This document shows positions 12,408 to 42,057 of a stretch of 64,000 bases of DNA, piece by piece. Origin of the DNA: an uncultured bacterium (GTDB lineage: Bacteria; Krumholzibacteriota; Krumholzibacteriia; LZORAL124-64-63); the NCBI GenBank assembly GCA_903912525.1, contig CAIWHK010000032.1:110409-174408 (forward strand), given 5' to 3'. The notes beneath the pieces were generated by a model. It made no database searches and was not told the DNA's origin. It saw nothing but the letters and a program-made list of their open reading frames with translations. The translations under genes were made by a program, and so were the position numbers. Each line of letters begins with the position of its first letter. The first letter of the stretch is position 1.

Positions 12408-15173
12408 TCAGTCGAGCGCCTGGATCCGGGCCGCCAGGGTGGCGGCCTTCGCTTCGTTCTCGGCCAGCGTCTCCCGCTGCTGCGCGACGACCTGCGCCGG
12501 CGCATTCGCCGTGAACTTCTCGTTCGTCAGTTTCGCGCGCATGCCCGCCAGCCAGCCTTCCAGCTTGTCGAGTTCCTTCTGGAGCCGCTGCCGCTCCTTG
12601 TCCAGGTCGACGAGCCCCTTCATGGGCAGGAAGACCTCGACGGAACCCGCCACACCGGCGCCCGCCGGGTGAGGCGCCGGGCCGTCCGCTTCGACGGCGA
12701 CACGCTCGAGCTTCGCCAGCAGCGCGATCAGCGGTGCCTGCCTGTCCAGCGCTTCGCGCCGCCCCGCATCGGTCGTGCGCAGCACACCCTCGCCGCGAAG
12801 GCCGGGCGCCACACCGAGCTCCGCGCGCAGGTTGCGCAACACGCCCACGATCTCCATGACCTCGCTGAACTCGGCCGCAGCGCTCGCGAACGGGGCCTCG
12901 CCGGAACAGGTCGGGAACGACGACGTCATCAGGTACCCGTCGGTGGCCGGCAACCAGCTCCACAGCTCCTCGGTGATGAACGGCATCACCGGGTGCAGCA
13001 GCTTGTACGACACGCCCAGGCACAGCACCGACACGGCCAGCGCCGGCGCGCGACGATCGGGATCGCGCAGGCGCGCCTTGATCGCCTCGAGGTACCAGTC
13101 GCAGAACTCGTGACGGAAGAAGTTGAACACCTCGTACGAGGCATCGTTCAACCGCCGCCGCTCAAGGTTGGCGTCGCAATCGGCCGCCACCCGGTACATC
13201 TGCGCGATGAGCCAACGGTCGGCCAATTCCAGGTCGCCGTCGGCCACCGCCAGCGGAAGCTCGCCGCCGAACACGCCACGCCACAGCGAGCGCAGCGAAT
13301 CAGCGGGCGCCGCCTGCCAGTCGGACGCCGACGCCACAGCCGACAGGTCCAGGGTCCGCGGCGCCGGGGCGCCCTTGGCCACCTCAACGCCGGCCTCGTC
13401 CCAGTTGCCGAGCACGAGCTTCGTCGCCTGGAAGATCTTGTTGCAGAAGTTGCGCCCGACCTCGAGGGTCGTTTCATCGAAGAACACGTCGGCGCCCGTG
13501 GGCGTCAGCATGACGAGGCTGCACCGCAGCGCGTCGGCCCCGTACTTGTCCATAAGATCGACCGGATCGGGGCTGTTGCCCAGCGACTTGCTCATCTTGC
13601 GGCCCTGGCCGTCGCGGACGATGCCGGTGAACAGCACCTCGCCGAACGGCTTTTCGCCCAGGAACTCGTAGCTGGCCATCACCATGCGGGCGACCCAGAA
13701 GAAGATGATGTCCGCCGCCGTGACCAGCACCGAGGTCGGGTGGAACCGTTCGAGGTCCTCCGTCTTGTCCGGCCAGCCGAGCGGCGAGAAGGTCCACAGC
13801 CAGCTGCTGAACCAGGTGTCCAGCACGTCGGGATCGCGCAGCAGGTTCGTGCCGCCGCACTTGTCGCAGACCGTCGGCTCGGACGCCGCCGCGATCTCGG
13901 CCCCGCAACCCTGGCAATACCAAACCGGGATCTGGTGCCCCCACCACAACTGCCGGCTGATGCACCAGTCGCGGATGTTCACCATCCAGTTGTTGTAGAC
14001 GCCTACCCAGCGGTCCGGGTACAGGCGGATCTCGCCGTCGGCCACCGCCGCGAGCGCCGGCTTGGCCAACTGGTCCATGCGCAGGAACCACTGCTTCGAC
14101 AGGTACGGCTCGATGATGGTGCCGCAGCGGTCATGATGACCAACCTGGTGTACGTGCTTCTCGACCTTGTCGAGCAGCCCTTCCGCTTCGAGCGCAGCGA
14201 CGACTTCCTTGCGGGCTTTCTTGCGGTCGAGCCCGGAAAAACGCCCCGCCTGCTCGTTCATGACTCCCGCCGGCGTCATGCAGATGACCTGCGGCAGGCC
14301 ATGTCGCCGCCCGACCTGGAAGTCGTTCGGGTCGTGCGCCGGCGTGATCTTGACGAATCCTGTGCCCTTCTCCGGGTCGGCATGATGGTCCCCGATCACG
14401 GGGATCTCGCGATCGGTCAGCGGCAACTTCACGAGCTTGCCGATGAACTGCTTGCGCTCCGGGTCGTTCGGGTGCACGGCGACCGCGACATCGCCGAACA
14501 TCGTTTCCGGCCGCGTCGTGGCCACGGTCACGTACCCCGAGCCGTCTGCGAGTGGATACCGAAGGTGCCACAGGCTGCCCTCGACCTCGCGGTGTTCCAC
14601 CTCGTCATCGCTGATAGCGGTCAGGTCGTGCGGGCACCAGTTCACCAGGTAGACGTCGCGGTAGATGAGGTCCTTCGCGCGCAGGCGAAGGAACGCCTCG
14701 GTCACCGCGCGGTTGCGCGCCTCGTCCATCGTGAACGCTTCGCGGCTCCAGTCGAGTGAACAGCCCAGCCGCCTGATCTGCGTCGTGATGCGGCCGTGCG
14801 TGTGTTCCTTCCACTCCCAGGCGCGGCGAAGGAACTCCTCGCGGCCGGCATCGCGCTTGTCGAGTCCCTGCTCCGCCATTTGCCGCGACACCACCTGCTC
14901 GGTCGCGATGCTGGCGTGGTCGGTGCCGGGCACCCACAGCGTCGGCCGACCCTTCATGCGCGCCCAGCGGATGAGCGTGTCCTGGACCGAGTTGCCCAGG
15001 CAATGCCCCATGTGAAGGATGCCGGTCACATTCGGCGGCGGCAGCGTGATCACGAACGGGTCGCCAACGGCGTCTGCAGCCGGGCTGAACAGGCCGGCTT
15101 CCTCCCACTGCCGGTACCACTTTTCCTCAAGGCCACCGGGGGTGTATTGGGCCATCTCACGAAGGTCAGCCAA
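12408..15173 (-). CDS. valS: Valyl-tRNA synthetase
   Basis: PPPNVTGILHMGH, DWCISRQLWWGH, DPDVLDTWFSS, KMSKS, C-terminal coiled coil; TTG start 7 nt after AGGAG (alternative ATG 15155). Confidence 0.98.
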   Translation of the reverse strand: MADLREMAQYTPGGLEEKWYRQWEEAGLFSPAADAVGDPFVITLPPPNVTGILHMGHCLGNSVQDTLIRWARMKGRPTLWVPGTDHASIATEQVVSRQMAEQGLDKRDAGREEFLRRAWEWKEHTHGRITTQIRRLGCSLDWSREAFTMDEARNRAVTEAFLRLRAKDLIYRDVYLVNWCPHDLTAISDDEVEHREVEGSLWHLRYPLADGSGYVTVATTRPETMFGDVAVAVHPNDPERKQFIGKLVKLPLTDREIPVIGDHHADPEKGTGFVKITPAHDPNDFQVGRRHGLPQVICMTPAGVMNEQAGRFSGLDRKKARKEVVAALEAEGLLDKVEKHVHQVGHHDRCGTIIEPYLSKQWFLRMDQLAKPALAAVADGEIRLYPDRWVGVYNNWMVNIRDWCISRQLWWGHQIPVWYCQGCGAEIAAASEPTVCDKCGGTNLLRDPDVLDTWFSSWLWTFSPLGWPDKTEDLERFHPTSVLVTAADIIFFWVARMVMASYEFLGEKPFGEVLFTGIVRDGQGRKMSKSLGNSPDPVDLMDKYGADALRCSLVMLTPTGADVFFDETTLEVGRNFCNKIFQATKLVLGNWDEAGVEVAKGAPAPRTLDLSAVASASDWQAAPADSLRSLWRGVFGGELPLAVADGDLELADRWLIAQMYRVAADCDANLERRRLNDASYEVFNFFRHEFCDWYLEAIKARLRDPDRRAPALAVSVLCLGVSYKLLHPVMPFITEELWSWLPATDGYLMTSSFPTCSGEAPFASAAAEFSEVMEIVGVLRNLRAELGVAPGLRGEGVLRTTDAGRREALDRQAPLIALLAKLERVAVEADGPAPHPAGAGVAGSVEVFLPMKGLVDLDKERQRLQKELDKLEGWLAGMRAKLTNEKFTANAPAQVVAQQRETLAENEAKAATLAARIQALD

Positions 15174-15508
15174 GGATCCACTCCTGTCGCCGCGGTCGCC
15201 CGCGCGGGCGGAAATGTCAACGGTCAAGCGAGTTGGCAAATTAGCATTCGCGTCAGACGTGGGCAACGGGATTACCATCAGGGACGCCCGACACCGACAG
15301 ATCGGGCGTCCAGATGGGGTCTTTTGAGGTCGCATGTGATGTTTTGCTAAATTAACGGACGAAGGATCAAGTAAATTTACCCTTATTCCGAAAAATATGC
15401 TTCCGACTGCCTAGAAAATGGAGTAAGTTCACAAGTGGAGAGCGCAGGAAATCGCCCTTAACGTCCCGCTCTGAAAGGACGTGGGACTAACATCAGTGGG
15501 GGATCCAC

Positions 15509-16099
15509 ATGCGAAAGTTTCTACTCGGATTGTTCATGCTTCTGGCTCTGGCTGGCAACGCGTCGGCCCAGCTCGACCCGGATAATGATGGCATCGGCGT
15601 CTACTTTGACCCCTGCGCCTGCAACAACTGCATCACGATGCCGGCTGGGGCGCACCGGGCGTTCCTCGTCATCACCCATCCCACCAGCCCTGCGGGCGTG
15701 CATGGATGGGAAGCCAAGATGTGGGCGGAGGGTCCCGTCTTCATCACCAACGTCGACGTGCTGGGCAATAACATCAACGTCGGCACGGCGCCTGAGTACA
15801 TGGTCGGCATCGTAGATCCTCTGATCAACCCGTTCACCTATCCTGCGGTGGTCGTGGCGATCATTGATTTCTACGTGACGAGCACGGCGTCCCCGACGTA
15901 CTTCTACATCGACGGCATCCGCTTCCACTCGCTGGCGGAAAAGATGCCTGCTTACCTGGACGGATCGAACACCGATGTCATCAAGCTGCTGCGGCAGTCG
16001 ACTGGTGGCCGGACCTTCCCGGTGGCCACGATCAACGGCGAATGCGCGGTCCCGGCCGAGACCGAGACCTGGGGCGGGGTCAAGTCCCTGTTCCGCTAG
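15509..16099 (+). CDS. Secreted protein of unknown function with C-terminal TWGGVKSLFR motif
   Basis: Sec signal MRKFLLGLFMLLALAGNASA|Q, beta-rich body, GGGGG RBS, own terminator. Confidence 0.88.
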   Translation: MRKFLLGLFMLLALAGNASAQLDPDNDGIGVYFDPCACNNCITMPAGAHRAFLVITHPTSPAGVHGWEAKMWAEGPVFITNVDVLGNNINVGTAPEYMVGIVDPLINPFTYPAVVVAIIDFYVTSTASPTYFYIDGIRFHSLAEKMPAYLDGSNTDVIKLLRQSTGGRTFPVATINGECAVPAETETWGGVKSLFR

Positions 16100-16126
16100 T
16101 TCACTGACGCGTGCCGTCTGACGATT

Positions 16127-16161
16127 GCGGGGCCCGGCGATAAGCGGGCCCCGCTTCTTTT
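16127..16161 (+). terminator. Intrinsic terminator
   Basis: GCGGGGCCCG-N8-CGGGCCCCGC followed by TTCTTTT. Confidence 0.9.
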
Positions 16162-16200
16162 GCCGCCACGCCCCACGGCCGCCGGGCCATGATCCGGCGC

Positions 16201-16228
16201 TTGGCAGGAACAGCGCACATGCTACAAT
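16201..16228 (+). promoter_or_regulatory. Sigma-70 promoter (extended -10) for the PDZ-PP2C gene
   Basis: TTGGCA-N16-TACAAT with TG one base upstream of the -10. Confidence 0.55.
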
Positions 16229-16291
16229 GATCGCCAGCCACGGTCGTGACCGTGAGGCATTGAACGGGCCCCCACGCGCGGAGCGCACGAC

Positions 16292-18811
16292 TTGCGGCAC
16301 CCGGCGGGCTATCGGCAGACCAGGTTCGAACGGCTTTCACGCGGCGCCGCCCTCCTGCTCGCCGCCCCTCTCCTGCTCGCTCTCTCGCTACCCACCGCGT
16401 TCCACATCGTCAAGCGCGCCGAATACGGTTTTGCCGTGCTCGACATGCACGTCCTGCGCGTCGACCCCGATGGCCCGGCCGAGCGGGCCGGCATCCGCGC
16501 GAAGGACCGTCTGGTTGCCGTGAACGACCGGCCTGTGGCGCGGATGTTCGACTACTATGCGGCGACGGCCGGACATTATCGGCACGAAATGCTGACGCTC
16601 CGACTGGCGCGGGGAACGGCCGAATTCGAGGCGCATGTCGTCCCCGACACGCCCGACCAGTCCGCAATGGTCACGCAGTACACGCAGTGGATCAGCGGCC
16701 TCGCCTTTCTCCTGATCGGCTGGTGGGTACTGGCGCGCAGGGCCGATCCGGTGGCGCGCAATTTCTTCGCCATGTGCGGCATCTTCGCCTTCTTCCTCAT
16801 CGACATCCCGGAAATCGACAACAGCGTCTACGTCGTCCTGAAGTACCACGCGCGCGCGCTGCTGCAACTGCTCCTGCCGGCCTATGTGCTGCTGTTCTTC
16901 CTGCAGTTCCCCACCCCCTGGCGCGCCGGCGCCCCGCAACACGCGCGCCTGCGGTGGGTGCTGCTGCCGGCCTGGTTCCTGTTCCTGCTGGCGACGATGA
17001 ACGAAGCCCTTCGCGGCGCCCGACCGACCGGCCTGCCGGACCAGGCGATCGCGGCCGTGTCCCTCGCCTACATGCTCGCGTGCTTCATCATCGGCCTCGG
17101 GCGTTTCGCGCGCGGCACGCTGCGGCGTGATCGCCCCATCCTGCGCACGAAGATGCTCGTCATCCTCGTCGGATTGACCGCCGGCCTCGTCCCGTTCCTG
17201 GTGACGATGGCGCTCGGGACGATCGCCCCCGGCGCCAGCGTCCCCCACCTGCGCTACCTCGGGTTGTCGCTGCTCCTGGTCCCGGCCAGCTTCGCGCTGG
17301 CGATCATGCGCTACGGTGCCCTCGATACGGCGTTCGTCGTGCGCATCGGCCTGATCTACGGCACGCTCACGTCACTGATTGTCGTGGGCTACCTGTCGGT
17401 GACGGTGGCCGTCGGCACCTTCCTGTCGTCGCGCTTCGCCGTCGATTCCTCGCAGGTGCTCGTCTTCCTGGTTGCCGGCACGGCCCTGGTCATCGCCCCG
17501 CTCCGCAACCGGATCCAGGCGCTGGTCGACCGGGCCTTCTACCCGTCGCGCCGCGCCAATCGCGACGCCATCGCCCGCCTGACCGACCGCCTCACCGGGT
17601 TGATCGAGGTCCAACCGGTCCTCGATCATCTCGCGGCGTCGCTCGGCGAGCTCTTTCGCCCCCGCACGTTCGCCATCGTCCTGGCCACCCCTGGTCCGCA
17701 GCGCGGCTTTGCCGTCCGCACCTTCTGGTCACCGTCGCCGGAAACGCCCCCCGGGCCCTGGCCGGCCCTTCCGGCCGAGAACCTCCTGGCGCCGCTGCTG
17801 AACCGGGTCCGCCGCCCCGTGTTCTGCGAAGAGCTTGAGGACCAGGGACCCGAGCAGTCCGCCGATCCCGCGTGGCCCCTGCTGCACCAGCTCCAGGCCG
17901 AACTCCTGGTGCCCCTGGTCTCGGGAAACCGACTGCTGGGCTTCCTGGCCTTCGGTCCCAAGTGCGGGGGACAACTCTACGGCCAGGAGGACGTGAGCAA
18001 CCTGCAGATGCTCGCACTCCAGGCCGGCCCCGTCGTCGAGAGCCGCCAGCTCTACGAGGACCGCCTGCGGGGCAAGCGCCTGGAGACCGAACTGGCCGTC
18101 GCCCGGGGCATCCAGGCCAATCTTTTGCCTGTGGCGCCCCTGGTCCTGCCGACGTGCACCATCTGCGGGCGCAACGAACCCTGCCGCACGGTGGGCGGCG
18201 ACTACTTCGACTATTTCGCTGTCGAGAACGGAGGCGTCGCGCTGGCGATCGGCGACGTGTCGGGAAAGGGCATCCCCGCCGCGCTGATGATGAGTTCGCT
18301 CCGCGTGGCCTTCCGCCTGGCCGCCGAGGCCGCCGCCTCCCCGCGGGACGTGGTCGCGCGCATGAACCCGGTCGTCGCCTCGCTCGTGGGCCCGAGCAAC
18401 TTCATCTGCTTCTTCTACGCGGTCTGGAGCCCGACCGAAAGCCTGCTGCGCTACTGCAATGCCGGCATGGACCCGCCGGTCGTCCTGCGCCCCGGCGCGT
18501 CCCACCGGCAGTACCTGCGCAAGGGTGGCCCGGTGCTCGGGGTCGAACCGGAGTTTGCCTATCGCGAGGGCGCCATCTCCCTGGCCCCCGGCGACCGCAT
18601 CTTTCTCTATACCGACGGCCTGACCGAACAACGCGATCCCCAGGGGCGTTTCTTTGATGCCGAGCGCCTGATCGAGCTGGTCGAGCAGGATGCCACCCGC
18701 CCACCTGAGGCCATCCTCGAGCACGTCTTTGCCACTGTGAATGCTTTCGGCCACCAACACCGCTCGGACGATCAGACCGCCATGTTGATGCAAATCCACA
18801 AGTTGGACTGA
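16292..18811 (+). CDS. Membrane sensor phosphatase: PDZ + multi-TM + GAF-like + SpoIIE/RsbU PP2C
   Basis: PDZ (VDPDGPAERAGIRAKDRLVAVN), about 10 TM helices, ELAVARGIQANLLP, VGGDYFD, IGDVSGKG, NAGMDPP, YTDGLTE, DDQT. Confidence 0.9.
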   Translation: MRHPAGYRQTRFERLSRGAALLLAAPLLLALSLPTAFHIVKRAEYGFAVLDMHVLRVDPDGPAERAGIRAKDRLVAVNDRPVARMFDYYAATAGHYRHEMLTLRLARGTAEFEAHVVPDTPDQSAMVTQYTQWISGLAFLLIGWWVLARRADPVARNFFAMCGIFAFFLIDIPEIDNSVYVVLKYHARALLQLLLPAYVLLFFLQFPTPWRAGAPQHARLRWVLLPAWFLFLLATMNEALRGARPTGLPDQAIAAVSLAYMLACFIIGLGRFARGTLRRDRPILRTKMLVILVGLTAGLVPFLVTMALGTIAPGASVPHLRYLGLSLLLVPASFALAIMRYGALDTAFVVRIGLIYGTLTSLIVVGYLSVTVAVGTFLSSRFAVDSSQVLVFLVAGTALVIAPLRNRIQALVDRAFYPSRRANRDAIARLTDRLTGLIEVQPVLDHLAASLGELFRPRTFAIVLATPGPQRGFAVRTFWSPSPETPPGPWPALPAENLLAPLLNRVRRPVFCEELEDQGPEQSADPAWPLLHQLQAELLVPLVSGNRLLGFLAFGPKCGGQLYGQEDVSNLQMLALQAGPVVESRQLYEDRLRGKRLETELAVARGIQANLLPVAPLVLPTCTICGRNEPCRTVGGDYFDYFAVENGGVALAIGDVSGKGIPAALMMSSLRVAFRLAAEAAASPRDVVARMNPVVASLVGPSNFICFFYAVWSPTESLLRYCNAGMDPPVVLRPGASHRQYLRKGGPVLGVEPEFAYREGAISLAPGDRIFLYTDGLTEQRDPQGRFFDAERLIELVEQDATRPPEAILEHVFATVNAFGHQHRSDDQTAMLMQIHKLD

Positions 18812-19131: not shown

Positions 19132-19668
19132 TCACGGCCGCAGCAGACCCTCGACAGCATGCTGATAGGTCGCCAGCGACTGCGCACCGATCCAACGCCG
19201 ACGAATGACGCCATCCGGACCCACCAGGAATGTCGTGGGCAACTGGTCGATGTTCCCGAAGGCGGGCGTCAGGTCGGGCTGGGCACCCTGCATCGCGACC
19301 GGAATCGTCAACGCCTGCCGCGCCACCACCGACCGCACCTTCCCCTCCCCCTCCTGCCCGATCGCCACGGCGATGACCAGGAGGCTGTCCGGATGGGCCC
19401 GACTGAGTTCCTGGAGATGGGGTAACGCCCGCAGGCAGGGACCGCACCAGGTATCCCAGAAATCGACGATGACGACCTTGCCGCGCTGCGCACCCAGATC
19501 CACGGACTTGCCCTCCAGGGTCGTGAGCGTCAGGGCCGGCACAACCGTGCCCTCGCGGCCTCCGCTCACCTTCGCCGCCGATGCGGCACGGCAGCCCGCC
19601 AGTGCCAGGGCGGCCACGACCATTGCGGCCACGGCCGGTCGCCACTGGGACCTCGAGATCTGAGCCAT
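19132..19668 (-). CDS. TlpA/ResA-family thiol-disulfide oxidoreductase lipoprotein
   Basis: Lipobox LALAGC; GKVVIVDFWDTWCGPC; LPTTFLV. Confidence 0.9.
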   Translation of the reverse strand: MAQISRSQWRPAVAAMVVAALALAGCRAASAAKVSGGREGTVVPALTLTTLEGKSVDLGAQRGKVVIVDFWDTWCGPCLRALPHLQELSRAHPDSLLVIAVAIGQEGEGKVRSVVARQALTIPVAMQGAQPDLTPAFGNIDQLPTTFLVGPDGVIRRRWIGAQSLATYQHAVEGLLRP

Positions 19669-19832
19669 GCGCGTCTGCCTTTCTTCATGAGCCGGGCGGC
19701 AGGCGCCGCCCAGACCCACGGTTAGTCCCGGAACCAATCCTTGTCCATCGGGCTATATCGCTTATTCTAGGCGCGCCCCGGCCCCAAGCGCCACCAGTGA
19801 GTTCCGAACAGCGTTCCAGGAAGAGGCTCCTG

Positions 19833-21668
19833 ATGCATGCCAACCGTCGGCTATGGCCGTTGTTCCCCCGGCGCCGTCGCACCCTCCGGGCTGCGGGCCT
19901 CATGGCCTGCCTCCTGGCCGTTGCCGCGCCCCAGGCCCACGCGCTTGACATCGCCGTGACGGTGCGCGGAAATGCCGTCGAAATCGGCCGCGACCTCGTC
20001 CTGGACATCGTGGTCACCCCTGCGGCAAGCGAGTTCCTCGACTCCGGCAGCCTCAAGCTCGAGGTGAACACTCCGGACGACAGCGCCCTGCTCGGCACAC
20101 CCTACCCCCCGAAAGTGACCGCCGGCGACGGAGGCGCGCTCGTCATCGAGTGGGCCGCTCCCGTCACCGGCAAGGGACGCCCGGGCGGGCACGGCCTGTC
20201 GGTGCGCGCCGCCGCCAGCACGGTCGACGGCCAACCGCTGTCCGCTGCCTGGGACGGCAAGATCACGGCGGCCTATGGCAAGGGCTGGTCCGCCGACCGC
20301 ATCCAGAACTTCCTGGACCGCCGCGGACTGCCGTTCTTCCTGGTCCTCGTCTTCGGCTTCGGCCTGCTGATGAGCCTGTCGCCGTGCATCTACCCGATGA
20401 TCCCGATCACCCTGGCGGTCATCGGCGCGCGCAGCCAGGAGAAGGGCGCACTCCACGGCCTCGGCCTGTCGGCCACCTACGTGCTGGGCATGGCCCTTGT
20501 CTACGCGATCCTCGGCGCCCTGAGCGCCTCGGTGTTCAGCGGCATCACGGCCTTCATGCAGAGTCCGGTGGTGGTCGGCCCGATCGCCGTGCTCCTGCTG
20601 GTGCTCGCTTTCAGCATGTTCGGCGCCTTCGAACTGCAGGCCCCTTCCTTCCTGCGTGACCGGCTGTCCGGCCCCGGCGGCGCCAAGGGCGGTCTTCTCG
20701 GCGTGTTCGCCATGGGCCTGGTCGCCGGGCTCGTCGCCTCGCCCTGCGTCGGCCCTTTCCTCGCCGCGCTCCTTGTCTGGGTGGCCACGACCGGCAACTG
20801 GGTGCTCGGCTTCTTCGCCCTGCTCACCTTCGGCCTCGGCATGGGCATGCTGCTGATCGGCGTCGGCACCTTCCCCGCGCTGCTGGGCACGCTCCCGCGC
20901 AGCGGCGGCTGGATGGACACGGTCAAGCGGGGCATGGGCCTGCTGCTGGTGGTCATGGCGTTCTGGTTTGTGCGGCCCGGCGTGGTCCTTCCCGCCGCCG
21001 TGTACTACCCGCTCGCCGGCGCGGCCGCGATCGTCACGGCCGTATTCATGGGCGCCTTCGATCGTCCACAGGAGTCCTGGGGTTGGTGGCCGCGCGCGCG
21101 CATGGCGCTGGGACTGGTCGTGTTCCTGGCCGGCGTGTGGTTCATGCTGGGCTCGTTCCTCGCCCACGGGTTCCTGATGCCATCGCCGTTCGGCGCGGCA
21201 ACGACCTCCGTCGGCGAGGCGCCGCCCGCGACCGCTTCGACGGCCGTGTCGCGTCCGGACGCCGCACCCGCCGGCGCCCCGGCGGCGCATGCCAAGGTCG
21301 CCTGGGAAGTCGTCACCACCGGCCCCGATGCGCGCCCGCGCCTCGATGCGCTGCGCGCGGCCGCGAAGGCCGAGGGCAAGCCCGTCATCATCGACTTCTG
21401 GGCCTCGTGGTGCATCTACTGCAAGAAGCTGGACAAGCTCGTGTGGACCGACGCGGCCGTGGTTGCCGAGTCGGCGCGTTGGAAGACAATCAAGGTCGAC
21501 GCCACCGCGACCGACGACGCCGACATGACCGCGATCAAGGAAGAGATGGGCGTGACCGGGCTGCCCCGCGTCGTGTTCATCGACAGCCAGGGAACGATCC
21601 TGCAGGACCGCTCGTCGGGCTTCGTGCCGGCGACCGACATGCTCGCCCTCATGCAGGGCGTGCGCTGA
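19833..21668 (+). CDS. dsbD: DsbD-like thiol:disulfide interchange protein
   Basis: Signal peptide; TM domain with SLSPCIYPMIP and ASPCVGP; C-terminal thioredoxin DFWASWCIYC. Confidence 0.88.
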   Translation: MHANRRLWPLFPRRRRTLRAAGLMACLLAVAAPQAHALDIAVTVRGNAVEIGRDLVLDIVVTPAASEFLDSGSLKLEVNTPDDSALLGTPYPPKVTAGDGGALVIEWAAPVTGKGRPGGHGLSVRAAASTVDGQPLSAAWDGKITAAYGKGWSADRIQNFLDRRGLPFFLVLVFGFGLLMSLSPCIYPMIPITLAVIGARSQEKGALHGLGLSATYVLGMALVYAILGALSASVFSGITAFMQSPVVVGPIAVLLLVLAFSMFGAFELQAPSFLRDRLSGPGGAKGGLLGVFAMGLVAGLVASPCVGPFLAALLVWVATTGNWVLGFFALLTFGLGMGMLLIGVGTFPALLGTLPRSGGWMDTVKRGMGLLLVVMAFWFVRPGVVLPAAVYYPLAGAAAIVTAVFMGAFDRPQESWGWWPRARMALGLVVFLAGVWFMLGSFLAHGFLMPSPFGAATTSVGEAPPATASTAVSRPDAAPAGAPAAHAKVAWEVVTTGPDARPRLDALRAAAKAEGKPVIIDFWASWCIYCKKLDKLVWTDAAVVAESARWKTIKVDATATDDADMTAIKEEMGVTGLPRVVFIDSQGTILQDRSSGFVPATDMLALMQGVR

Positions 21669-34269: not shown

Positions 34270-35229
34270 TCAGGGGCGGTAGACGAGGTCAGCGACCAGT
34301 CGGCCGGCCTGCTGGAGTGAGGCCGCCGAGCAGAATTCCGGCCGGTCGGCTGTGGTATGCCAGCGCGGGTCGTCGAAGTCGATCAGGTCGACGGCAGGCA
34401 CGCCCGCCTGCAGGAACGGCACGTGGTCGTCGTAGACCTGCCGCCCCGGGACGGGCTCGAACATGTCCAGCCCCAGGCCGGCGGCCCGCTCGAAGACCGC
34501 GGCGGTCCAGTCCGGGGCCAGCGCCAGCGAGTAGCCTTCCTGCGGAACGCGCGCACCGGCCCTGCCGACCATGTCCAGCAGGACCAACCCGCGGCAACGC
34601 GTCGCATCCAGCGGGCTGCCGAATGCCCCCAGCGACGCCGCCAGATACCGGCTTCCATGGCAAAAACCTGCGGCATCGTGCTGCCGACCCGAATCCTCGG
34701 CGTCCAGGAACAGGAGGTCGACGCCCCGGGGCGGCGGCGATGCTCCCAGCAACTCGATCAGGTGCAACAGAACTGCCGTGCCGCTGCCGCCGTCGTTGGC
34801 GCCGGGAACGGGCTCGGTACGGCGGGCAGGCACGGGATCCTGGTCCGCCCATGGTCGCGTGTCGTAGTGCGCCGCGAGCCACAGGCGCTCGCCTCCCTCG
34901 GGCCCTGCCGAGACAATGATGTTGCAGGCGTCGACACCGCTGCCCTTCGGCCCCAGCGGAGCGCTGAAGTGCTGTTCGCTGACCCTGAGGCCGGCCTTGC
35001 GCGCGGCGTCGATGACCATGGCGCGCAGGGCCAGGTTTCCCGCCGAACCAGGCGTCCGCGGACCGAGCGCACATTGCCGGCGAACAAGGTCCAGGGCGCG
35101 GTCTCCGGAAAACGCGGGCACGGCAACCGGTGCCCCTGCATGCGCCGGCGCAATGACAGCCGCCCCGAGGACTGCAGCCACGGCCAGCCCGCGCAAACGG
35201 CGCGCAACGAATGGCGTCCTAGAAAACAA
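34270..35229 (-). CDS. M28-family zinc enzyme, glutaminyl cyclase-like
   Basis: Signal peptide; GPRTPGS, AAHYDTRPWADQD, GANDGGSG, LDAED, LLDMVG, DDHVPF, WHTTAD; overlaps sprA stop. Confidence 0.85.
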   Translation of the reverse strand: MFSRTPFVARRLRGLAVAAVLGAAVIAPAHAGAPVAVPAFSGDRALDLVRRQCALGPRTPGSAGNLALRAMVIDAARKAGLRVSEQHFSAPLGPKGSGVDACNIIVSAGPEGGERLWLAAHYDTRPWADQDPVPARRTEPVPGANDGGSGTAVLLHLIELLGASPPPRGVDLLFLDAEDSGRQHDAAGFCHGSRYLAASLGAFGSPLDATRCRGLVLLDMVGRAGARVPQEGYSLALAPDWTAAVFERAAGLGLDMFEPVPGRQVYDDHVPFLQAGVPAVDLIDFDDPRWHTTADRPEFCSAASLQQAGRLVADLVYRP

Positions 35230-38200
35230 AAGTCGCCTCCACTCCGAGGCCGAGAGTCGTGCTGTGCTGTCCGGTGGCGATGTTGTTGCTCCGGGCGAAT
35301 TTGAAACGGAGCGCCCCGTTCAGGTTCTTGGATATCTGGTATGTAAAGCGCGGGTCCAGGCTGAGGCGCTTCTGCCCTGTCGGCGCCGTGTCCGCGAAAC
35401 CGGGATTCACACGGTCGGTCCGGTCCGACTGGTACGCCAAGTCGACGTCAAGCGTAACGTTCTGGCTCGAGCCGGGTCGGTACAGGCCCATCTTCGCCAG
35501 GAACTGCTCGGCGCGGAACTGGTGGCGCACCTGCAGCCCGTACCTCGCCTGGTTGGTCTTGGTCATGACGCCGTTGCCGCGCACCTCGTCCCACTTCAGG
35601 TTCGCATTGAGCGTCGCCGACAAACCACTCGGGAAGGTGAACGACCAACGGGGCTGGACCGTCGTCGAGTAGGTCGGACTGAAGACCGTCGCAGTGTAGC
35701 CGTTCACCGTCAGGCTCTTCTTGTAGCCGACATTGAAGCTGGACGAACGGAACCAGCCTTCCCCCTCCTTGCCGCCTCCGCCAAGCAGTCGCCACTTCTC
35801 GATACCCGACAGGGAAACCTGGACGTCGGGCCACTCCTCCCGCAGGCTGCGCGATTCCGAACCCACTTGTTCCCGCACGGTGTTGTTGCTGGCATACTTG
35901 AGATCCAGCGACAATTGCCGGGTCAATTTCGTGTTGGTGGCCAGGGTCACGGACTCCTGTTCGTCGAAGCCGCGCGCCGCAAACCGCGTTGCGTCGACAT
36001 CGAGTCCTGACGTGAAGCCGGCCTCGTACCAGAAGCTCGCCGGATCCAACAGGCGGACGTAGCTGCTGTTCCGCCGCCGGGTCAGCGTCACCTTCACCGG
36101 TTGCGTATTGCGCAGGGCCGAGACAAACGGCTCGACCAGCGTGCGCGGCCCGAAGCCGTGGCCAGCGCCGGTCGTCGCCTCAGAGGCGGGCGGCGGCCCT
36201 GCACCCGGGACGACGACACCGGTCGCCGCGCCGCCGCGCTGCTCCTCCTGCTCCCGCGCGATCCGTTCCTCGGCGGCCGCGATGAGCCGTTCATCCTCGC
36301 GGCGCTGCCGCTCATCGGGCGTCAGCAGCAGGTCGTCTTCCGCGGCAACGGGTGTCGTCGCCCTCGTCTCCGGCGTACCGGCGCCTCCCCGGGACTGCGC
36401 CGTGTCGCCGACCGCGGGTGCCGTATTCGGCATCGTCGGCGACGCTCCGGGAGGCCGGCGGGATTCGCGTTCCTCGAGGCGGCGCTGCTGCGCGAGCATC
36501 TGATCGCGCTGGGAATCGGACCGGCGCTGCTCAGGGAAGACGGCCTTGACGGCATCACCGACGGGCACCTGCAACCGCAGGTCCCAGCCGCCCGAATTGG
36601 ACACCGAACGCACACCTTCGGGATCACCGGGCTGGCGTGTCGCCGGATCGTGAATGTCGGCGAATCCCCCTGTGAACTGCAGCGAAGGATTGAGCCGGTC
36701 GACCAGGCGCAGGGCCAGCCGGGCCGGCACGAGGAACGGGCTGGACGACAGCTTCACGCCCTTGGGCGGCGCGAAGGTGATGCGCAGGTCGTAGCTCCGC
36801 CGGTTCTCCTGGCCGATATTGACGCCGCCCACCTTCTCCTCCCGCATCAGGTCACGGTCGGAGTTCACGCCGAACGCGATGTCGGCGATCGACAACGGGG
36901 AATAGTCCAAGGCCCCGGTGAGCTTGCCGATCCGCTTGCGGTCGACCGGGCGCACCGTCACCAAACCGTTCTCGGCGATCGTCGTGGTCGCACCCTCCGT
37001 CGAACTGAAGCTGGCGCCGAGGGCGACGCGACGAGGCACGACGGAAAGGCCCTTGATGATCGGGAACCAGCGGAACACCGGATAGGCACCAAGGGTGTAG
37101 GAGCCCTGGATGCGAAGGTCGAAATTCAACGAGCCCTGCAGGCTCTTGCTGCGGAGGAGCTGCAGAGGGCTGTCCGTCTTCTCGCGCGAGCCGCTCAACT
37201 GCACGGACCAGGGGTCGACCATGTATCGCAGCAGCGCCGCCTTCGCCGGGGTGTGGTTGAGGCGGGCCGAGAACTGCTCGCGAGTGGAGATCGTCGACAT
37301 CGCCGACAGCATGTCGGGGTCGATGATCTCGATGTCGCTGTTCGTGACGTACTTCGGCCGGTCAATCGACTGTCGGCGGCTTCCGTTGACAGGCAACCGG
37401 AAGCCGGCCAGCGGCAGAAAGTCCTCGACATTAAAGCTGTTCGTCAGGTTCCACTCGCCCTTGTCGACACCGCTGCCGGTGCGCTTATCCAAGCCGTGGT
37501 ATTCGTCGTCGGTGTGACGCCAGTCGAAATCGACCTTGAAGACGTCGGCCATGTTCAGGCGCACGCCGGCGCGCTCGGCCACGCCCTGGTCCCGCTTGAT
37601 CCCCTCCAGCCTGACGTCATTGATGTAGAAGTACCCGTTGGCCGGTGCGCTCAGGGCGTTGTTGGCCACGCAGACGAAATAGCGGCGGACCCGACGCAGG
37701 TCGGGACGGCCGACGACCCGGACGCGGTACTCGTCCCCCGACTCCATATCGGGCACGATCGCATGCAGGCTTCCATCCTCGGCCAGGTCGCCCGTCTTCG
37801 CGTTCGACAGCTCGGCAAGGCCGATCGAGGACCGGTGCCAACCGGTCTTGGCGGCACCGTCGCTGAAGCGGTAGGCCACCTCGTAGTAGTTGAGCGAGTC
37901 GGCGCCGACCCGGAACAGCAGGTCGAGGTCGGCGGTGCCGTGCGACGGGTTGAACCAGTACCATGACATGTTCCGGTAGCTCGTGTAGTCGTCGCCGCGC
38001 GGAGAGACCTGCTTGCTGATGCGCATCAGGTGACCGCGTTCGAGGTCCTGGAAGTTCAGGACCAGCGACTGCTCCTTGTCCGGGATGTTGTTCTCGACAT
38101 GCACGCTGAACGGGGGCGAATAATCGGGGTTCTCCTTGTTGTTCACTTCGCCGAGGAAGAACTCCTCGTCCGGCAGCCGTTCACCGCGGCTGAGCAGTTG

Positions 38201-41200
38201 TTCGCCGTCGATGCGGCGGACGCCCTCGCGTTCCCACCGGCTGCCCAGGAAACGGAGGTCCGACAGTTGCAGGTGGACGGTCGACGGCGCGCCGGCAGTC
38301 TCGTTCTCGTACCAGACGCGCGCGTGCGTCACCGCCTTGATGTTGGCGACCGTTCCCGCCGAGACCGAATCGAGCGCGGCAAGCGGGATGCGGTACTTAC
38401 GCCAGGCGATCCCGGCCGCCACGAGATCCCCGACGTTGTCGTAGTCACGCACGACGTCGACCAGAGCCGGCGTTTCCTTCAGGTCGATCGCCACGGTGTA
38501 GAAGCCGTCATCCTTGTCCAACCGCCCGTTGGCGTTCAGGTCCTCGGTATCCTCGCGGTTGTTGCGCGCGGTGTTGTTGATGCGCGGGAACGGGTCGTCG
38601 GCGCCGACGAAATCGGCGTCATAGAGCTTTCCATCGGAAGCATCGCCGTCCAGGCCGATGTCCTCGTCATAGGTCCACACGCCGTCAGGCTGGTTGTTGA
38701 CAATGCCGTCTTCCCGCTGGAGCGAATCGGTGACCAGGTTGCCTTGCGTATCCTTGGGCCAGAACCCGTCCTCGTTGATGTAGCCGAAATCGAAGTGCAG
38801 TGTTCCCGACCGCAGGGTCGTATCCGGCACTGCATCGTTGACCCAGACCTCCACGAACTGCGACTTCGACAGGTCCAGCCCGGTCCGGCTGATGCCGCGC
38901 ATGATGCCGCCCCAGTTCTCCGGTCTCCAGAGGCCGTCGGCGCGCAGGTAGAGATCCATAGCCGTCTGGGTCTCATCCCGCTCCTGGTTGACCAGGTCCG
39001 GGTTCAGGTAGCGCCGCAGCACGCGCTCCTTGGGCAGGAACCAGCGCAGCGTCGGGACACGATCCTCGGGCTCGAACTTCCGCGAGTCGATATGTTCGGT
39101 CAACCAGCCGGCTCCCAGTATGGGCTGACTGGCCCACGACCAGCCCAGGCGGTTGAGGGAGACCATGTCGGAGGCGTCCACGCCCTCGAAGTCCTCCAGG
39201 TAGACCTGGCCCTTGGTGTTTGGGTTGGGCATGCTGAGCGCCAGCTCACCCAGAAACTGGAGGCTGCTTTCGCGCTCTGAGTCGTTCCGGCTGAGGAAGT
39301 TCGCCACCGACGTCAGGAACCGCGGCTTGAACGTGTGCAGCAGGTTCACGTTGCCGACCATGTTCTTGCTCGGCTCCTCGCCCAGCTTCGCTTTCTCGCC
39401 GACGATCGCCTCGCTCTGGTACAGCAGGCTCGTCGCCAGCTTGCTGTCGCGCCCGAGGTCGTAGCCCAGGCTGAGGCCCATCAGGCTGGTGTTCCCGCCG
39501 CCCATGAACGGCGCGAACTGGTAGTCGACCGAGATCTTGCTGTCGGCCGTCAGGTTCGCGGCATCACCCTTCAACTGGATCTCGCCGAAGGTGTAGTCGA
39601 TCTCGTAGTCCACGTTGCGTGTCAGGGTCCGCCCGTCGACAGTGACCGTCTCCGAGCCTTCCTCGATATTCGAGGCGCCCAGGCTGATGCTGCTGCTGGC
39701 CGCCGCGTGGCGGGCCACGATGTTGAATTCGCTGTGGGTGACCAGTTCGCTCTGCTGGGTATCCTCGGCGTAAATGCGGCTGAGGCCGGCGATGCTCAAC
39801 TGCAGGAACGTCCCCGTCCACGCGAAGTTCTCCACGTCGGCGTACTCCGCGTACTTCTCCGGCGGCGCGTTGAACGGCTCGGGAAAATCGAGGGGGAACT
39901 TCAGCAGCCCCTTCACGAGGTCGATCAGGTACGGGTTGTCGGCGTCGGCGAGCCCGTCATGTATCGTCTCACCCTGCGGGTTGGTCCGGTCCAGGCCGAA
40001 GACGCGGATGTAGTCGATCTTGTTCGCGCTGTCCTGCGCCGGCTGGCTACTGCCGGGATCATTCTTCTCGATGCGCAACTCGAACGTGGCAGGATCGATG
40101 TTCGCGCCGCCCAGCGAATAGATGTTCCGCAGCACGTACTTGAAGACGTGCGGAACCGTGTCCGTGGACAGCGACTTCAGGAGCTTCATGCGGTAATAGC
40201 TGCCGGTGCCGCCGGTGACGGTCTGCACCGGCGAGCCGATGACCTCGGGATTGTCGCCGATCCGTGCGACTTCGCCGCCCTGCGCGTCCTCGACGATGTA
40301 GACCACAGCCAGCACGTCGGAGGCGTCCATCTGCGTGCGCATGTCGATGGCGATGAGACCGCCGTTGCTGTCGAGCATCGGGTCGAACGCCGTATATTCA
40401 CGCCAGCGCGGGCCGTAATCGTGCGGCGCGGTAAAATCGATGCTGCCGTCACCCCACGCCCCGAAGCCGAGGCTGTCGACATAGACCGCCACGTTGGAGA
40501 TGTCACCGGGCTGGAACGTCCCGGTGGGCATCAGTTCGAACACCTTGACCGAACTGTACCGGATGCGCTCCCCGTTCCGGCGCCCGAAGGGCTCGGACTC
40601 GGGCAGGTCGAGGCGGAAGAAGCGGTTGTTGAGGTACGCGTACGCGGGGATGATGTTGTCGGAAACCTGCCCACCCTTGGCGTTGAACTGCTTGGAACTG
40701 GACTCCGCCTTCTGCTTGGACGCGACGACGGTGAATTCGGCGCGCCCGACCTGGCCGGTGACCTTAACGCCGAACAGGCCGGATTTGTTCGAGCTGTAGC
40801 CCATCAGCTGGCTGCCCGGCAGGGTCAGGCCGACGTCGCCCGTTTCGATCGTCTTGATGATCTCGTCGTCCAGGCCGCGGTACATCAACTTGATCTTCGT
40901 GGCGTCCGGGCCCATCTGCTGGCTGTTGTGGTCGACCTCGAGGATGATCTTCTCGCCGATGGTGCCCGAGAGGTTGATCGACAGCTGCTGCTCCATGTCG
41001 AGCGTCGGGAACAGGGACTGGCTGCTGACGCGCTCGCTGGCGACGAACGGCTTGGTCACCGTGCTCTCGCCGCTGAGGGCGATGTGCTCGCGTCCAGTGA
41101 TCTTGATCTGGGTCTTCTCGCCCTTGCCGATGATCTTCTCGAGTGTGCGCGGCAGCTTCACGGGAATCGTCAGGTTGATCAGGCCCGAGTCCTGCGTCCC

Positions 41201-41809
41201 CTTGGATCCACCAGTCACGTTCAGCGCGTCGGTCCGTCCGAGTGTCGTCGCCACGGTATAGCTGCGCAGCGAGTAGGCGCCGATGTCGTCGACGAACAGG
41301 TCCACCACGTCGTCCCCAACCGGTCGCGGCGGGTACCACGTGAACCCGCCGGGCAGGGTGTCGGCGAGAGGCATCAGGTTGAAGTAGCGCGGGTGCCTGA
41401 CCCGGGTGACGATGCCCAGCAGGTCATTGTATTCGACCAGGCTCTCCTGCCGCACGAGATCGACGTTGGCGCGCTGGCGCCACTGGCGACGCCAGATCGT
41501 GGACGCGTCCGGCTGCCGTCCCGGCTCGCGCAGCGGATCGACACCCTGCCGGAGCAGGCGCTCCCGCAGGATCAGGCGCTCAGGGCCAAGGAGGCGCGGG
41601 TCATCCGTGGTCCGCAACAGGACGTCCAGGCCGGGCACCGGCGCGCCGGCTGGCGCGGCCGCGTCGACGGGCGCATCACTCTGGGCCTGGGCCCCCGCCG
41701 GCAGGCACGCGAACCACGCCAGGGCAGCCACCACGGACCACAGCCGGCAACCGGCGGGGAACCAGCCCCGCCAACATGGGTTTCCGAGCCTGCCAGATGA
41801 CCGGGACAA
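35219..41809 (-). CDS. sprA: Type IX secretion translocon SprA/Sov homolog (about 2200 aa)
   Basis: LDMEQQLSINLSGTIGEK, IKLMYRGLDDEIIKTIETGDV, GLFGVK, SETVTVDGRTLTRNVDYEIDY, WGGIMR, EDLNANGRLD, beta-barrel C-terminus ending in F; TTG start after AAGGAG. Confidence 0.9.
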   Translation of the reverse strand: MSRSSGRLGNPCWRGWFPAGCRLWSVVAALAWFACLPAGAQAQSDAPVDAAAPAGAPVPGLDVLLRTTDDPRLLGPERLILRERLLRQGVDPLREPGRQPDASTIWRRQWRQRANVDLVRQESLVEYNDLLGIVTRVRHPRYFNLMPLADTLPGGFTWYPPRPVGDDVVDLFVDDIGAYSLRSYTVATTLGRTDALNVTGGSKGTQDSGLINLTIPVKLPRTLEKIIGKGEKTQIKITGREHIALSGESTVTKPFVASERVSSQSLFPTLDMEQQLSINLSGTIGEKIILEVDHNSQQMGPDATKIKLMYRGLDDEIIKTIETGDVGLTLPGSQLMGYSSNKSGLFGVKVTGQVGRAEFTVVASKQKAESSSKQFNAKGGQVSDNIIPAYAYLNNRFFRLDLPESEPFGRRNGERIRYSSVKVFELMPTGTFQPGDISNVAVYVDSLGFGAWGDGSIDFTAPHDYGPRWREYTAFDPMLDSNGGLIAIDMRTQMDASDVLAVVYIVEDAQGGEVARIGDNPEVIGSPVQTVTGGTGSYYRMKLLKSLSTDTVPHVFKYVLRNIYSLGGANIDPATFELRIEKNDPGSSQPAQDSANKIDYIRVFGLDRTNPQGETIHDGLADADNPYLIDLVKGLLKFPLDFPEPFNAPPEKYAEYADVENFAWTGTFLQLSIAGLSRIYAEDTQQSELVTHSEFNIVARHAAASSSISLGASNIEEGSETVTVDGRTLTRNVDYEIDYTFGEIQLKGDAANLTADSKISVDYQFAPFMGGGNTSLMGLSLGYDLGRDSKLATSLLYQSEAIVGEKAKLGEEPSKNMVGNVNLLHTFKPRFLTSVANFLSRNDSERESSLQFLGELALSMPNPNTKGQVYLEDFEGVDASDMVSLNRLGWSWASQPILGAGWLTEHIDSRKFEPEDRVPTLRWFLPKERVLRRYLNPDLVNQERDETQTAMDLYLRADGLWRPENWGGIMRGISRTGLDLSKSQFVEVWVNDAVPDTTLRSGTLHFDFGYINEDGFWPKDTQGNLVTDSLQREDGIVNNQPDGVWTYDEDIGLDGDASDGKLYDADFVGADDPFPRINNTARNNREDTEDLNANGRLDKDDGFYTVAIDLKETPALVDVVRDYDNVGDLVAAGIAWRKYRIPLAALDSVSAGTVANIKAVTHARVWYENETAGAPSTVHLQLSDLRFLGSRWEREGVRRIDGEQLLSRGERLPDEEFFLGEVNNKENPDYSPPFSVHVENNIPDKEQSLVLNFQDLERGHLMRISKQVSPRGDDYTSYRNMSWYWFNPSHGTADLDLLFRVGADSLNYYEVAYRFSDGAAKTGWHRSSIGLAELSNAKTGDLAEDGSLHAIVPDMESGDEYRVRVVGRPDLRRVRRYFVCVANNALSAPANGYFYINDVRLEGIKRDQGVAERAGVRLNMADVFKVDFDWRHTDDEYHGLDKRTGSGVDKGEWNLTNSFNVEDFLPLAGFRLPVNGSRRQSIDRPKYVTNSDIEIIDPDMLSAMSTISTREQFSARLNHTPAKAALLRYMVDPWSVQLSGSREKTDSPLQLLRSKSLQGSLNFDLRIQGSYTLGAYPVFRWFPIIKGLSVVPRRVALGASFSSTEGATTTIAENGLVTVRPVDRKRIGKLTGALDYSPLSIADIAFGVNSDRDLMREEKVGGVNIGQENRRSYDLRITFAPPKGVKLSSSPFLVPARLALRLVDRLNPSLQFTGGFADIHDPATRQPGDPEGVRSVSNSGGWDLRLQVPVGDAVKAVFPEQRRSDSQRDQMLAQQRRLEERESRRPPGASPTMPNTAPAVGDTAQSRGGAGTPETRATTPVAAEDDLLLTPDERQRREDERLIAAAEERIAREQEEQRGGAATGVVVPGAGPPPASEATTGAGHGFGPRTLVEPFVSALRNTQPVKVTLTRRRNSSYVRLLDPASFWYEAGFTSGLDVDATRFAARGFDEQESVTLATNTKLTRQLSLDLKYASNNTVREQVGSESRSLREEWPDVQVSLSGIEKWRLLGGGGKEGEGWFRSSSFNVGYKKSLTVNGYTATVFSPTYSTTVQPRWSFTFPSGLSATLNANLKWDEVRGNGVMTKTNQARYGLQVRHQFRAEQFLAKMGLYRPGSSQNVTLDVDLAYQSDRTDRVNPGFADTAPTGQKRLSLDPRFTYQISKNLNGALRFKFARSNNIATGQHSTTLGLGVEATFVF

Positions 41810-42057
41810 ACGCGGGATCTCCTTGATGGCGCGGAGTCGGCCGGCAAAATACTGCTGGTCCGGCCGTCGCCCGTCTACGAAAATGGTCAGGCTGTGCCCT
41901 CGGAGGGGCCCATCCTTCCGGCTCCCGCACCGGGAGTCGTGAAAAGTCCGGCTCGGACAGGCCATCCCGGAACGCTCGGCACCCGGTTCGCCGGACGTCG
42001 GCGACGGGGCGCACGCGGCCTCAGCGGCTTGCCGCCGCCACAACCACGAAAGCGTCT

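Follow-up and report, generated by a model that had tools for sequence, protein, structure and literature searches.

A short C-terminal tag on exported proteins of Krumholzibacteriota and Eisenbacteria, a probable portable sorting or anchoring signal

Introduction

The beta-signal of outer membrane proteins (OMP) is a C-terminal aromatic residue that is read by BamA and by DegS-type PDZ sensors. Type IX secretion system (T9SS) cargo carries a C-terminal domain (CTD). One study, in its available text (PMC10994853), describes CTD motifs as mainly specifying the fold and a near-invariant lysine near the C terminus of type A CTDs as functionally important; the SprA-PorV site is reported there to recognize the shape of the folded CTD. 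According to the available text of a second study (PMC11969387), the short CTDs of Prevotella intermedia comprise 40 to 55 amino acids (aa) and are cleaved and glycosylated, and in Hbp35 of P. gingivalis only the last 22 residues are absolutely required for secretion and attachment of GFP. The P. intermedia CTDs and Hbp35 are a precedent for short T9SS signals. The element described here is a 16-residue C-terminal tail on a protein encoded in a stretch of 64,000 nucleotides (nt) from an uncultured bacterium of the Krumholzibacteriota (GenBank assembly GCA_903912525.1, contig CAIWHK010000032.1, positions 110,409 to 174,408 of the forward strand), referred to below as the window. The tail recurs on many unrelated proteins and is very probably a portable tag for protein sorting or anchoring. 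The tag is covered by no Pfam or NCBIfam model, and no published description of it was found in the literature searched, which consisted mainly of listings and abstracts.

Results

A strictly terminal motif on unrelated exported proteins

The target gene (15509..16099, + strand), taken from the open reading frame (ORF) list and the sequence, encodes an exported cohesin-like protein of 196 aa that ends in ...INGECAVPAETETWGGVKSLFR-stop. The last 16 residues, V181 to R196 (16049..16096), form a flexible tail (VPAETETWGGVKSLFR-stop) in two parts. Part 1 is a linker, V-P-A-E-T-E (residues 181 to 186; 16049..16066, + strand), delimited from tail column counts and the family alignment. Part 2 is the core, T-W-G-G-V-K-S-L-F-R (residues 187 to 196; 16067..16096, + strand), which has a free C terminus and is followed immediately by the stop codon TAG (16097..16099, + strand). 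A first-pass annotation of the window had described a Sec-exported globular protein with a short linker and TWGGVKSLFR-stop; the sequence and the AlphaFold2 (AF2) model bear this out, except that the start given for the tail, 16045, is 4 nt early because the tail spans 16049..16096.

The genome from which the window was taken (G000) comprises 4.29 Mb on 72 contigs, with a GC content of 68.7% and a completeness of 97.75%. A regular-expression search of the kind that the first-pass annotation had proposed revealed 45 stop-to-stop ORFs ending in [ST]WG.[IVLM]K..[YFW].{0,3}, 40 of which carry the exact end [FY]R-stop. Across all six frames, 45 occurrences of the core motif were terminal and a single one was internal, 7 residues away from an end; each of 20 shuffles of the ORF tails gave 0 matches. 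At the DNA level, the pattern W-G-x-[LIVM]-K-x-x-[FY]-R-stop gave 51 matches compared to 0 in the reversed control. The tail motif is far above chance. A 24-column hidden Markov model (HMM) of the tails, with the tag accepted at <=6 residues from the ORF end, retrieved 78 tagged ORFs. The consensus is V-P-x-E-x-x-[ST]-[WF]-G-x-[VLI]-K-[ASG]-[LMT]-[FY]-R-COOH, with V, P, and E of the linker present in 37, 32, and 29 of 46 tails, and many tagged proteins carry a cysteine a few residues upstream. The hydrophobic moment of the last 9 residues is raised for a helix (0.50 versus 0.38 in shuffled tails) and for a strand (0.57 versus 0.38) alike and so cannot tell helix from strand.

A strict signal peptide rule was passed by 71 of the 78 tagged ORFs and by 215 of 800 control ORFs, an enrichment for which the first-pass annotation had proposed a test; a laxer rule was discarded, as 357 of 600 controls passed it. 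All 78 tagged proteins look exported. When signal peptides and tails were stripped, the bodies fell into 56 BLAST clusters, the largest of which has 7 members and includes the target. The statement of the first-pass annotation that similar tails end many unrelated secreted proteins holds in this genome. The median length of the tagged proteins is 217 aa. The Pfam gathering cutoff was passed by 20 of the 78 proteins, with Beta_helix (five), LTD (five), PPC (two), CHRD, DUF4114, DUF642, AhpC-TSA, CBM_20, TSP_3, Temptin_C, and Kre9_KNH among the bodies; 53 of the 78 gave no Pfam match at E<=0.01. Judged by these domains, most tagged bodies appear to be typical surface or extracellular modules. 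Matches below threshold to the NCBIfam models choice-of-anchor C, PEP-CTERM PepA, MYXO-CTERM MtsC, and GlyGly-CTERM ExeM suggest that some tagged bodies resemble proteins that bear other anchors elsewhere.

Structure of the target protein

The N terminus of the target is a Sec signal peptide, MRKFLLGLFMLLALAGNASA|Q (residues 1 to 20; 15509..15568, + strand), whose A-S-A|Q cleavage site was read by eye. Pfam and NCBIfam searches gave no matches, and neither a transmembrane (TM) segment nor a T9SS CTD is present in the protein, in agreement with the first-pass annotation. The AF2 model, built on 71 family members, revealed a single beta-sandwich at residues 28 to 175 (15590..16033, + strand) with pLDDT >90, a helix at residues 2 to 14 separate from the fold, and no folded part beyond residue 175. 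Confidence in the tail was low (pLDDT of ~55), and a short helix was drawn at residues 188 to 194. The Foldseek matches listed against the PDB at E<=0.001 were cohesin modules throughout, e.g., 6kgd, 5nrm, and 2ccl, with TM-scores of <=0.68 normalized to the target; the Pfam Cohesin model (PF00963) gave no match. The predicted body is of the cohesin fold by this structure comparison. The confident sandwich, the cohesin matches, and the low-confidence tail together indicate that the target consists of one cohesin-like module plus a flexible appended tail.

Conservation of the tag and its exchange with PEP-CTERM

The C terminus is the tag or a near variant such as ...TFDGVKALYR in 118 of the target's 120 homologs, which agrees with the terminal position foreseen earlier; the remaining two have unrelated ends and are short fragments of 123 and 112 aa. 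All 120 are named hypothetical, and the source organism, where given, is Krumholzibacteria or plain "bacterium." In the alignment of this family, C179 and V181 are near-invariant, as are K192, L194, and R196. A second family, with a DUF642 body, carries the tag at the end in 71 of 78 homologs (68 by the regular expression and 3 variants by eye); among the others, one has the tag 10 residues before the end and one is truncated. The distant DUF642 homologs P0314, P0315, and P0318 have PEP-CTERM-type tails, with PF07589 on P0315. This result indicates that the tag occupies the position of a known sorting signal.

Phylogenetic distribution

Of the 151 genomes examined in the window's phylum, 145 carry the tag DNA pattern; the reversed control gave 1 match overall, and within the window's own family there are tens of matches per genome. 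The genomes of this phylum are named Krumholzibacteria in NCBI; one (G152) is labelled Latescibacterota yet belongs there. In two pattern-negative genomes, G005 and G014, the tag occurs as W-S and F-S variants, and the strict-pattern counts are therefore lower bounds. In the Eisenbacteria, 77 of 81 genomes have the pattern, so that the occurrence in both phyla given in the first-pass annotation was confirmed. A longer pattern, applied to one genome per species, gave at least 131 stretches, the named ones mostly from Eisenbacteria or Krumholzibacteria, and a true stop codon follows 139 of 139 tails inspected in the longer-pattern stretches listed. None of 60 further genomes of Gemmatimonadota has the pattern; the seed genome alone was positive, on one contig. 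One genome flagged as unpublished is counted in the Eisenbacteria tally and another in the Gemmatimonadota tally (G170 and G351). Reversed-control matches numbered one or two in each large survey.

Lone matches were found in metagenome-assembled genomes labelled Legionella (L004 in G155, on a 1.7-kb contig), Planctomycetota (L078 in G154), and Gemmatimonadota (L080 in G153); they may be bin contamination. An 8.1-kb IMG/VR contig classed as viral carries an ORF of 259 aa that ends in ...DSTWGQVKSLYR (L255:2501-3280, - strand). It is one of three matching loci in the viral collection, and the other two are without a clear tagged ORF.

Relation to type IX secretion

The genome encodes a T9SS set with SprA, a PorU-PorV pair (on contig C28), and at least 5 PorV-like paralogs. 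SprA was detected by its Pfam model in 117 of 151 genomes of the phylum, and 5 of 5 retested "negatives" were also positive; in the Eisenbacteria, it was present in 80 of 81 genomes. The CTD cargo of the genome amounts to 126 TIGR04183 matches, or 152 terminal CTDs (median ORF of 821 aa) by a purpose-built HMM. None of the 78 tagged proteins matches a CTD model, and no protein of this genome carries both signals. Tag genes are enriched beside CTD genes: a CTD gene immediately precedes 10 of 78, compared to 34 of 1,870 controls, and 26 of 72 have one within 1 kb, compared to 219 of 1,661 controls. Around the tag arrays of Eisenbacteria, FlgD_ig-type CTD proteins are the sole recurrent neighbor family (9 of 19 loci).

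Comparison of the C termini revealed the ends [KR][ML][TV]L[VL][KR]-COOH for the local CTDs and K[AS][LM][FY]R-COOH for the tag. In the tag, the lysine is invariant at position -5 and an arginine is last; the local CTDs have K/R at -6 and K/R last, so that the two registers are one residue apart. The likeness between the two sequence ends is partial. A predicted complex of PorV (C28) and the target scored 0.00 in a run made without controls, which weighs neither way.

Several gene arrangements combine both signals. In four cassettes (G000 C8:16453-18660, C9:108931-110310, C10:102369-104590, and C62:32617-34824), a CTD-ended ORF is followed, after 16 to 60 nt, by a tagged beta-helix protein of ~385 aa. 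The CTD-ended ORFs encode ~320 to 336 aa but only 70 aa on C9, and a fifth tagged beta-helix paralog (C23) has no such CTD neighbor. A run of genes on one strand (G000 C7:1855-9393, - strand) encodes a CTD protein of 1,291 aa, a PorV-like barrel of 389 aa, a CTD protein of 575 aa, and a tagged protein of 263 aa. The gene at G000 C65:38756-41104 (- strand), after which a tagged gene comes, encodes a CTD cargo protein of 782 aa whose N terminus bears the cohesin-like domain of the target's paralogs (<=70% identity over 150 aa). This N-terminal domain is matched by five cohesin-like tagged paralogs.

An operon with a PorU-type C25 peptidase paralog

One tagged family recurs in an operon that consists, in order, of a dockerin-like gene, one to four tagged cohesin-like genes, and a gene whose product is a PorU-type C25 peptidase paralog carrying its own FlgD_ig CTD. 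In the window's genome, the operon (C4:9785-16898) comprises a homolog of the dockerin-like protein (9785-10465), two tagged cohesin-like paralogs of the target (10649-11227 and 11662-12330), and a C25 plus FlgD_ig protein of 1,457 aa (12432-16898). Further loci are L206, L207, L208, L241, and L277 to L296. Tag arrays lie directly upstream of the Peptidase_C25 plus FlgD_ig CTD protein in G267 and within ~2 kb of it in G254 and G152, each of these three clusters includes a dockerin-like gene, and in G031 tagged genes also lie upstream of a C25 gene. Along its entire length, the C25 paralog of the window's genome resembles its counterparts in the other clusters (25 to 28% identity); with the main PorU, it has only the C25 and CTD parts in common.

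The window's own family was surveyed in the first-listed genome of 20 genera, with g19, g21, g23, and g24 left out; the paralog matches in g19 and g21 are cut by contig ends. One to four tag-ended ORFs on the same strand were found in 17 of 20 windows upstream of the paralog, compared to any tag-ended ORF in 1 of 40 windows of <=17 kb around the best-scoring C25 gene. A dockerin-like gene was present in 18 of 20 paralog windows and a cohesin-like match in 15 of 20. In the tag-poor genome G089, the sole strict-pattern match falls inside the C25 operon. In G020, G022, and G071, the place tables put the sole strict-pattern match 2 to 4 kb from a weak match to the N-terminal part of the paralog, on the same contig and strand. 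This N-terminal part gave strong matches only in the window's own family; elsewhere it was weak or not found (for f2, 2 of 10 genomes), and in the Eisenbacteria only weak matches were obtained (50 of 81 genomes).

A tricorn-like protease heads the cluster of dockerin-like, tagged, and C25 genes in G254 (L207:131-3493) and G267 (L206:955-4260) only. In G254, it has a PD40 propeller, a Tricorn PDZ domain, and Peptidase_S41 by Pfam; in G267, it was assigned by position. None of the three tricorn-like genes of the window's genome adjoins tag genes. This S41/PDZ protease was rejected as a general partner of the tag.

Gene neighborhood of the target

Upstream of the target gene, valS lies in divergent orientation. 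Downstream, a terminator-like hairpin of 10 GC pairs followed by a T-run (16127..16154, + strand) and a promoter-like site for the next gene (16201..16228) separate the two genes, which makes the earlier reading of a monocistronic gene reasonable. The product of the next gene (16292..18811, + strand) is a membrane protein in which a PDZ domain close to the N terminus is followed by a GAF domain and then by a SpoIIE/PP2C phosphatase domain. The PDZ domain was judged from the sequence to be periplasmic, with several TM segments after it. The order valS, cohesin-like tagged gene, and PDZ-GAF-SpoIIE phosphatase gene is retained in 6 of 10 valS-linked orthologous loci of related genera. A gene about 3.5 kb downstream (19581..21668, + strand) codes for a DsbD-type thiol-disulfide transporter that has a thioredoxin domain at its C terminus.

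Discussion

The first-pass annotation had read the tail as a minimal C-terminal secretion or anchoring tag, possibly read by the SprA-type translocon encoded nearby or by a processing enzyme. A portable, strictly terminal tag on Sec-exported proteins stands. The SprA-type T9SS translocon gene of the window (35219..42043, - strand; Pfam SprA_N, E of 7e-13) provides context only. SprA is near-universal in both tag-bearing phyla and common in the Gemmatimonadota (48 of 61 genomes), and its gene, 19 kb from the target, is therefore without specific weight. Profiling the tag against SprA does not discriminate, and a specific link to this gene is not supported. The idea of a processing enzyme has gained one lead, the PorU-type C25 paralog beside tagged cohesin-like genes, which falls short of proof.

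The tag is likely at home in the T9SS world as a C-terminal sorting signal. We infer its membership in type IX secretion and attachment, and the steps from recognition onward are offered as a hypothesis. A tagged protein would be exported by Sec and then recognized through its free C terminus, where the invariant lysine, the hydrophobic pair, and the terminal arginine partly resemble the local CTD ends. It would reach the cell surface, where a PorU-like C25 peptidase would cleave it within the V-P-x-E linker and attach it to a surface glycolipid, in the way that PorU treats CTD cargo. In the case of the target, the anchored cohesin-like module would hold a dockerin-like partner. That the tag route is coupled to type IX secretion and that a PorU-like peptidase does the processing is a tentative proposal that we place slightly below an even chance. 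A bolder form of it is doubtful: a second, undescribed branch of type IX sorting, in which a dedicated PorU-like C25 transpeptidase paralog would read a 16-residue tag that lacks a membrane helix, and ~2% of the proteome would be covalently fixed to the surface, including cohesin-like modules that hold dockerin-like partners. This would amount to cellulosome-style display in uncultured phyla of the Gram-negative type.

Several observations weigh against such a type IX route. In windows of <=17 kb around the best-scoring C25 gene, one per genus, the same regular expression found a tag-ended ORF in 1 of 40; G031 was a known positive before this selection. The number of pattern matches around these genes was 2, compared to 2.4 expected, and a general linkage of the tag to PorU was rejected on the basis of the windows. 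In the Eisenbacteria, 30 loci with the best matches to the N-terminal part of the C25 paralog were taken, 4 of which had no tblastn match. A tagged gene lies upstream in 0 of the remaining 26, 4 of which lack upstream sequence, and the paralog was rejected as partner of the tag in this phylum. Strong matches to the N-terminal part are also confined to the window's own family, and the operon may therefore be a feature of the cohesin-like family and not of the tag itself. SprA is present in Gemmatimonadota, where 60 further genomes gave no tag pattern, so that a T9SS alone does not imply the tag. Tag and CTD occur in one genome on distinct size classes (medians of 217 and 821 aa), which may reflect different routes. 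Some tagged bodies look periplasmic, namely, a ResA/TlpA-like redoxin and small dihaem-cytochrome-like proteins. AF2 gives the tail a helix, not a strand, at low confidence, and the tag is far too short for a folded CTD of the kind reported to be recognized by SprA-PorV.

Other readings of the tail do without type IX processing. The intact, uncleaved tail might act as a miniature dockerin, a docking peptide that binds an envelope receptor or scaffold noncovalently. Such a role would suit a tag of very few residues with a strictly terminal position, high conservation in both halves, and a distribution that, as far as it was seen, is limited to two phyla. Any of the neighboring CTD cargo genes could encode the receptor, and no sortase-type gene generally adjoins the tag genes. 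A receptor candidate was, however, not found, docking leaves the crossing of the outer membrane unexplained, and the conserved operon with the C25 paralog suits processing better than passive docking; we regard docking as unlikely. Still less probable is an amphipathic anchor, in which the last 9 to 10 residues would form a short helix in a leaflet of the inner or outer membrane, with W, V/L/I, L/M, and F/Y on one face and K and R at the edge. The AF2 helix at residues 188 to 194, the raised helical moment, and the periplasm-type bodies (redoxin and cytochrome-like) are consistent with it, and we presume some likeness to the membrane-targeting helices of MinD and FtsA. Against it, the strand-type moment is equally raised, the majority of the bodies are of the extracellular type, and the invariance of W-G, K, and the terminal R, with V-P-x-E, across two phyla suggests a protein reader rather than lipid.

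A protein reader of another kind would be a periplasmic C-terminal protease or stress sensor with a PDZ domain, for which the tail would be a recognition signal in maturation, turnover, or envelope-stress sensing. PDZ readers need a free C terminus, which matches the strict terminal position of the tag; tag arrays have the tricorn-like protease at their side in G254 and, as assigned by position, in G267, and the membrane PDZ-GAF-SpoIIE phosphatase gene after the target is kept in 6 of the 10 valS-linked loci described above. A terminal arginine is nevertheless atypical for PDZ ligands, the tricorn-like genes of the window's genome stand apart from its tag genes, a degradation tag would sit on ~2% of ORFs, and the exchange with PEP-CTERM suggests sorting, all of which leaves this reading very improbable. 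We can effectively exclude that the tail is no signal at all but the relic of a single expanded paralog family, or a product of chance: the target does sit in a cluster of seven paralogs, but the tagged bodies form 56 clusters with unrelated Pfam domains, and shuffled tails and reversed DNA gave 0 matches in this genome, with the latter giving one or two per large survey.

Should the tag be a sorting signal, it would mark ~2% of this genome's ORFs, and in at least two widespread uncultured phyla it would mark tens of proteins in each genome. The current annotation of such proteins is hypothetical, with no predicted destination, and a model of the tag would improve the prediction of surface proteomes in these lineages. 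The C25 paralog is a concrete enzyme candidate. The tag also bears on the minimum size of a type IX-type signal, and a 16-residue display tag could serve engineering.

Comparison with known sorting signals

The tag shares with the T9SS type A CTD (TIGR04183, PF18962, and the FlgD_ig-like PF13860) its place behind a flexible linker at the extreme C terminus of Sec-exported, mostly surface-type proteins. In the conserved lysine near the end and the hydrophobic-hydrophobic-basic ending the likeness is partial, with registers one residue apart. Tag genes and CTD cargo genes lie clustered together, one tagged family is accompanied by a PorU-type C25 paralog, and SprA, PorV, and PorU are all encoded in the genome. 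Unlike CTDs, which comprise 40 to 100 residues in three to seven strands, ~70 to 100 of them outside the short forms, and form folded beta-sandwich domains detected by models, the tag has 16 to 20 residues and no fold and is missed by the CTD models. It has its own invariant W-G and upstream V-P-x-E, and it was not found in the Gemmatimonadota searched despite their common SprA.

With PEP-CTERM/exosortase, LPXTG, GlyGly-CTERM, and MYXO-CTERM signals, the tag has in common that it is short, portable, and present on many unrelated exported proteins. It resembles PEP-CTERM in particular by its position in DUF642 and choice-of-anchor C homologs and by the Pro-x-Glu signature that leads it. The tripartite layout of such signals is absent: V-P-x-E-x-x is followed by 10 residues, one lysine among them, without a TM helix or a basic cluster and with a single terminal arginine. 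Exosortase (PF09721) gave 0 matches in the window's genome at its completeness of 97.75%.

The OMP beta-signal is likewise a conserved motif that needs the free C terminus of an exported protein. The tag, however, ends in arginine and not in an aromatic residue (40 of the 45 tails end in [FY]R-stop), and the target body is predicted to be a soluble beta-sandwich rather than a barrel; the local PorV-type barrels end in ...YRF, ...VRF, or ...VEF. A further comparison concerns the anchoring scaffoldins of cellulosomes, in which cohesin is combined with an SLH or sortase anchor. The target differs from these in lacking a Pfam Cohesin match, in its uncultured host of the Gram-negative type, and in that its dockerin partner is putative. 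It is like them in its predicted cohesin-like fold, in the tag that stands in the position of the anchor, and in paralogs that are encoded beside a dockerin-like protein.

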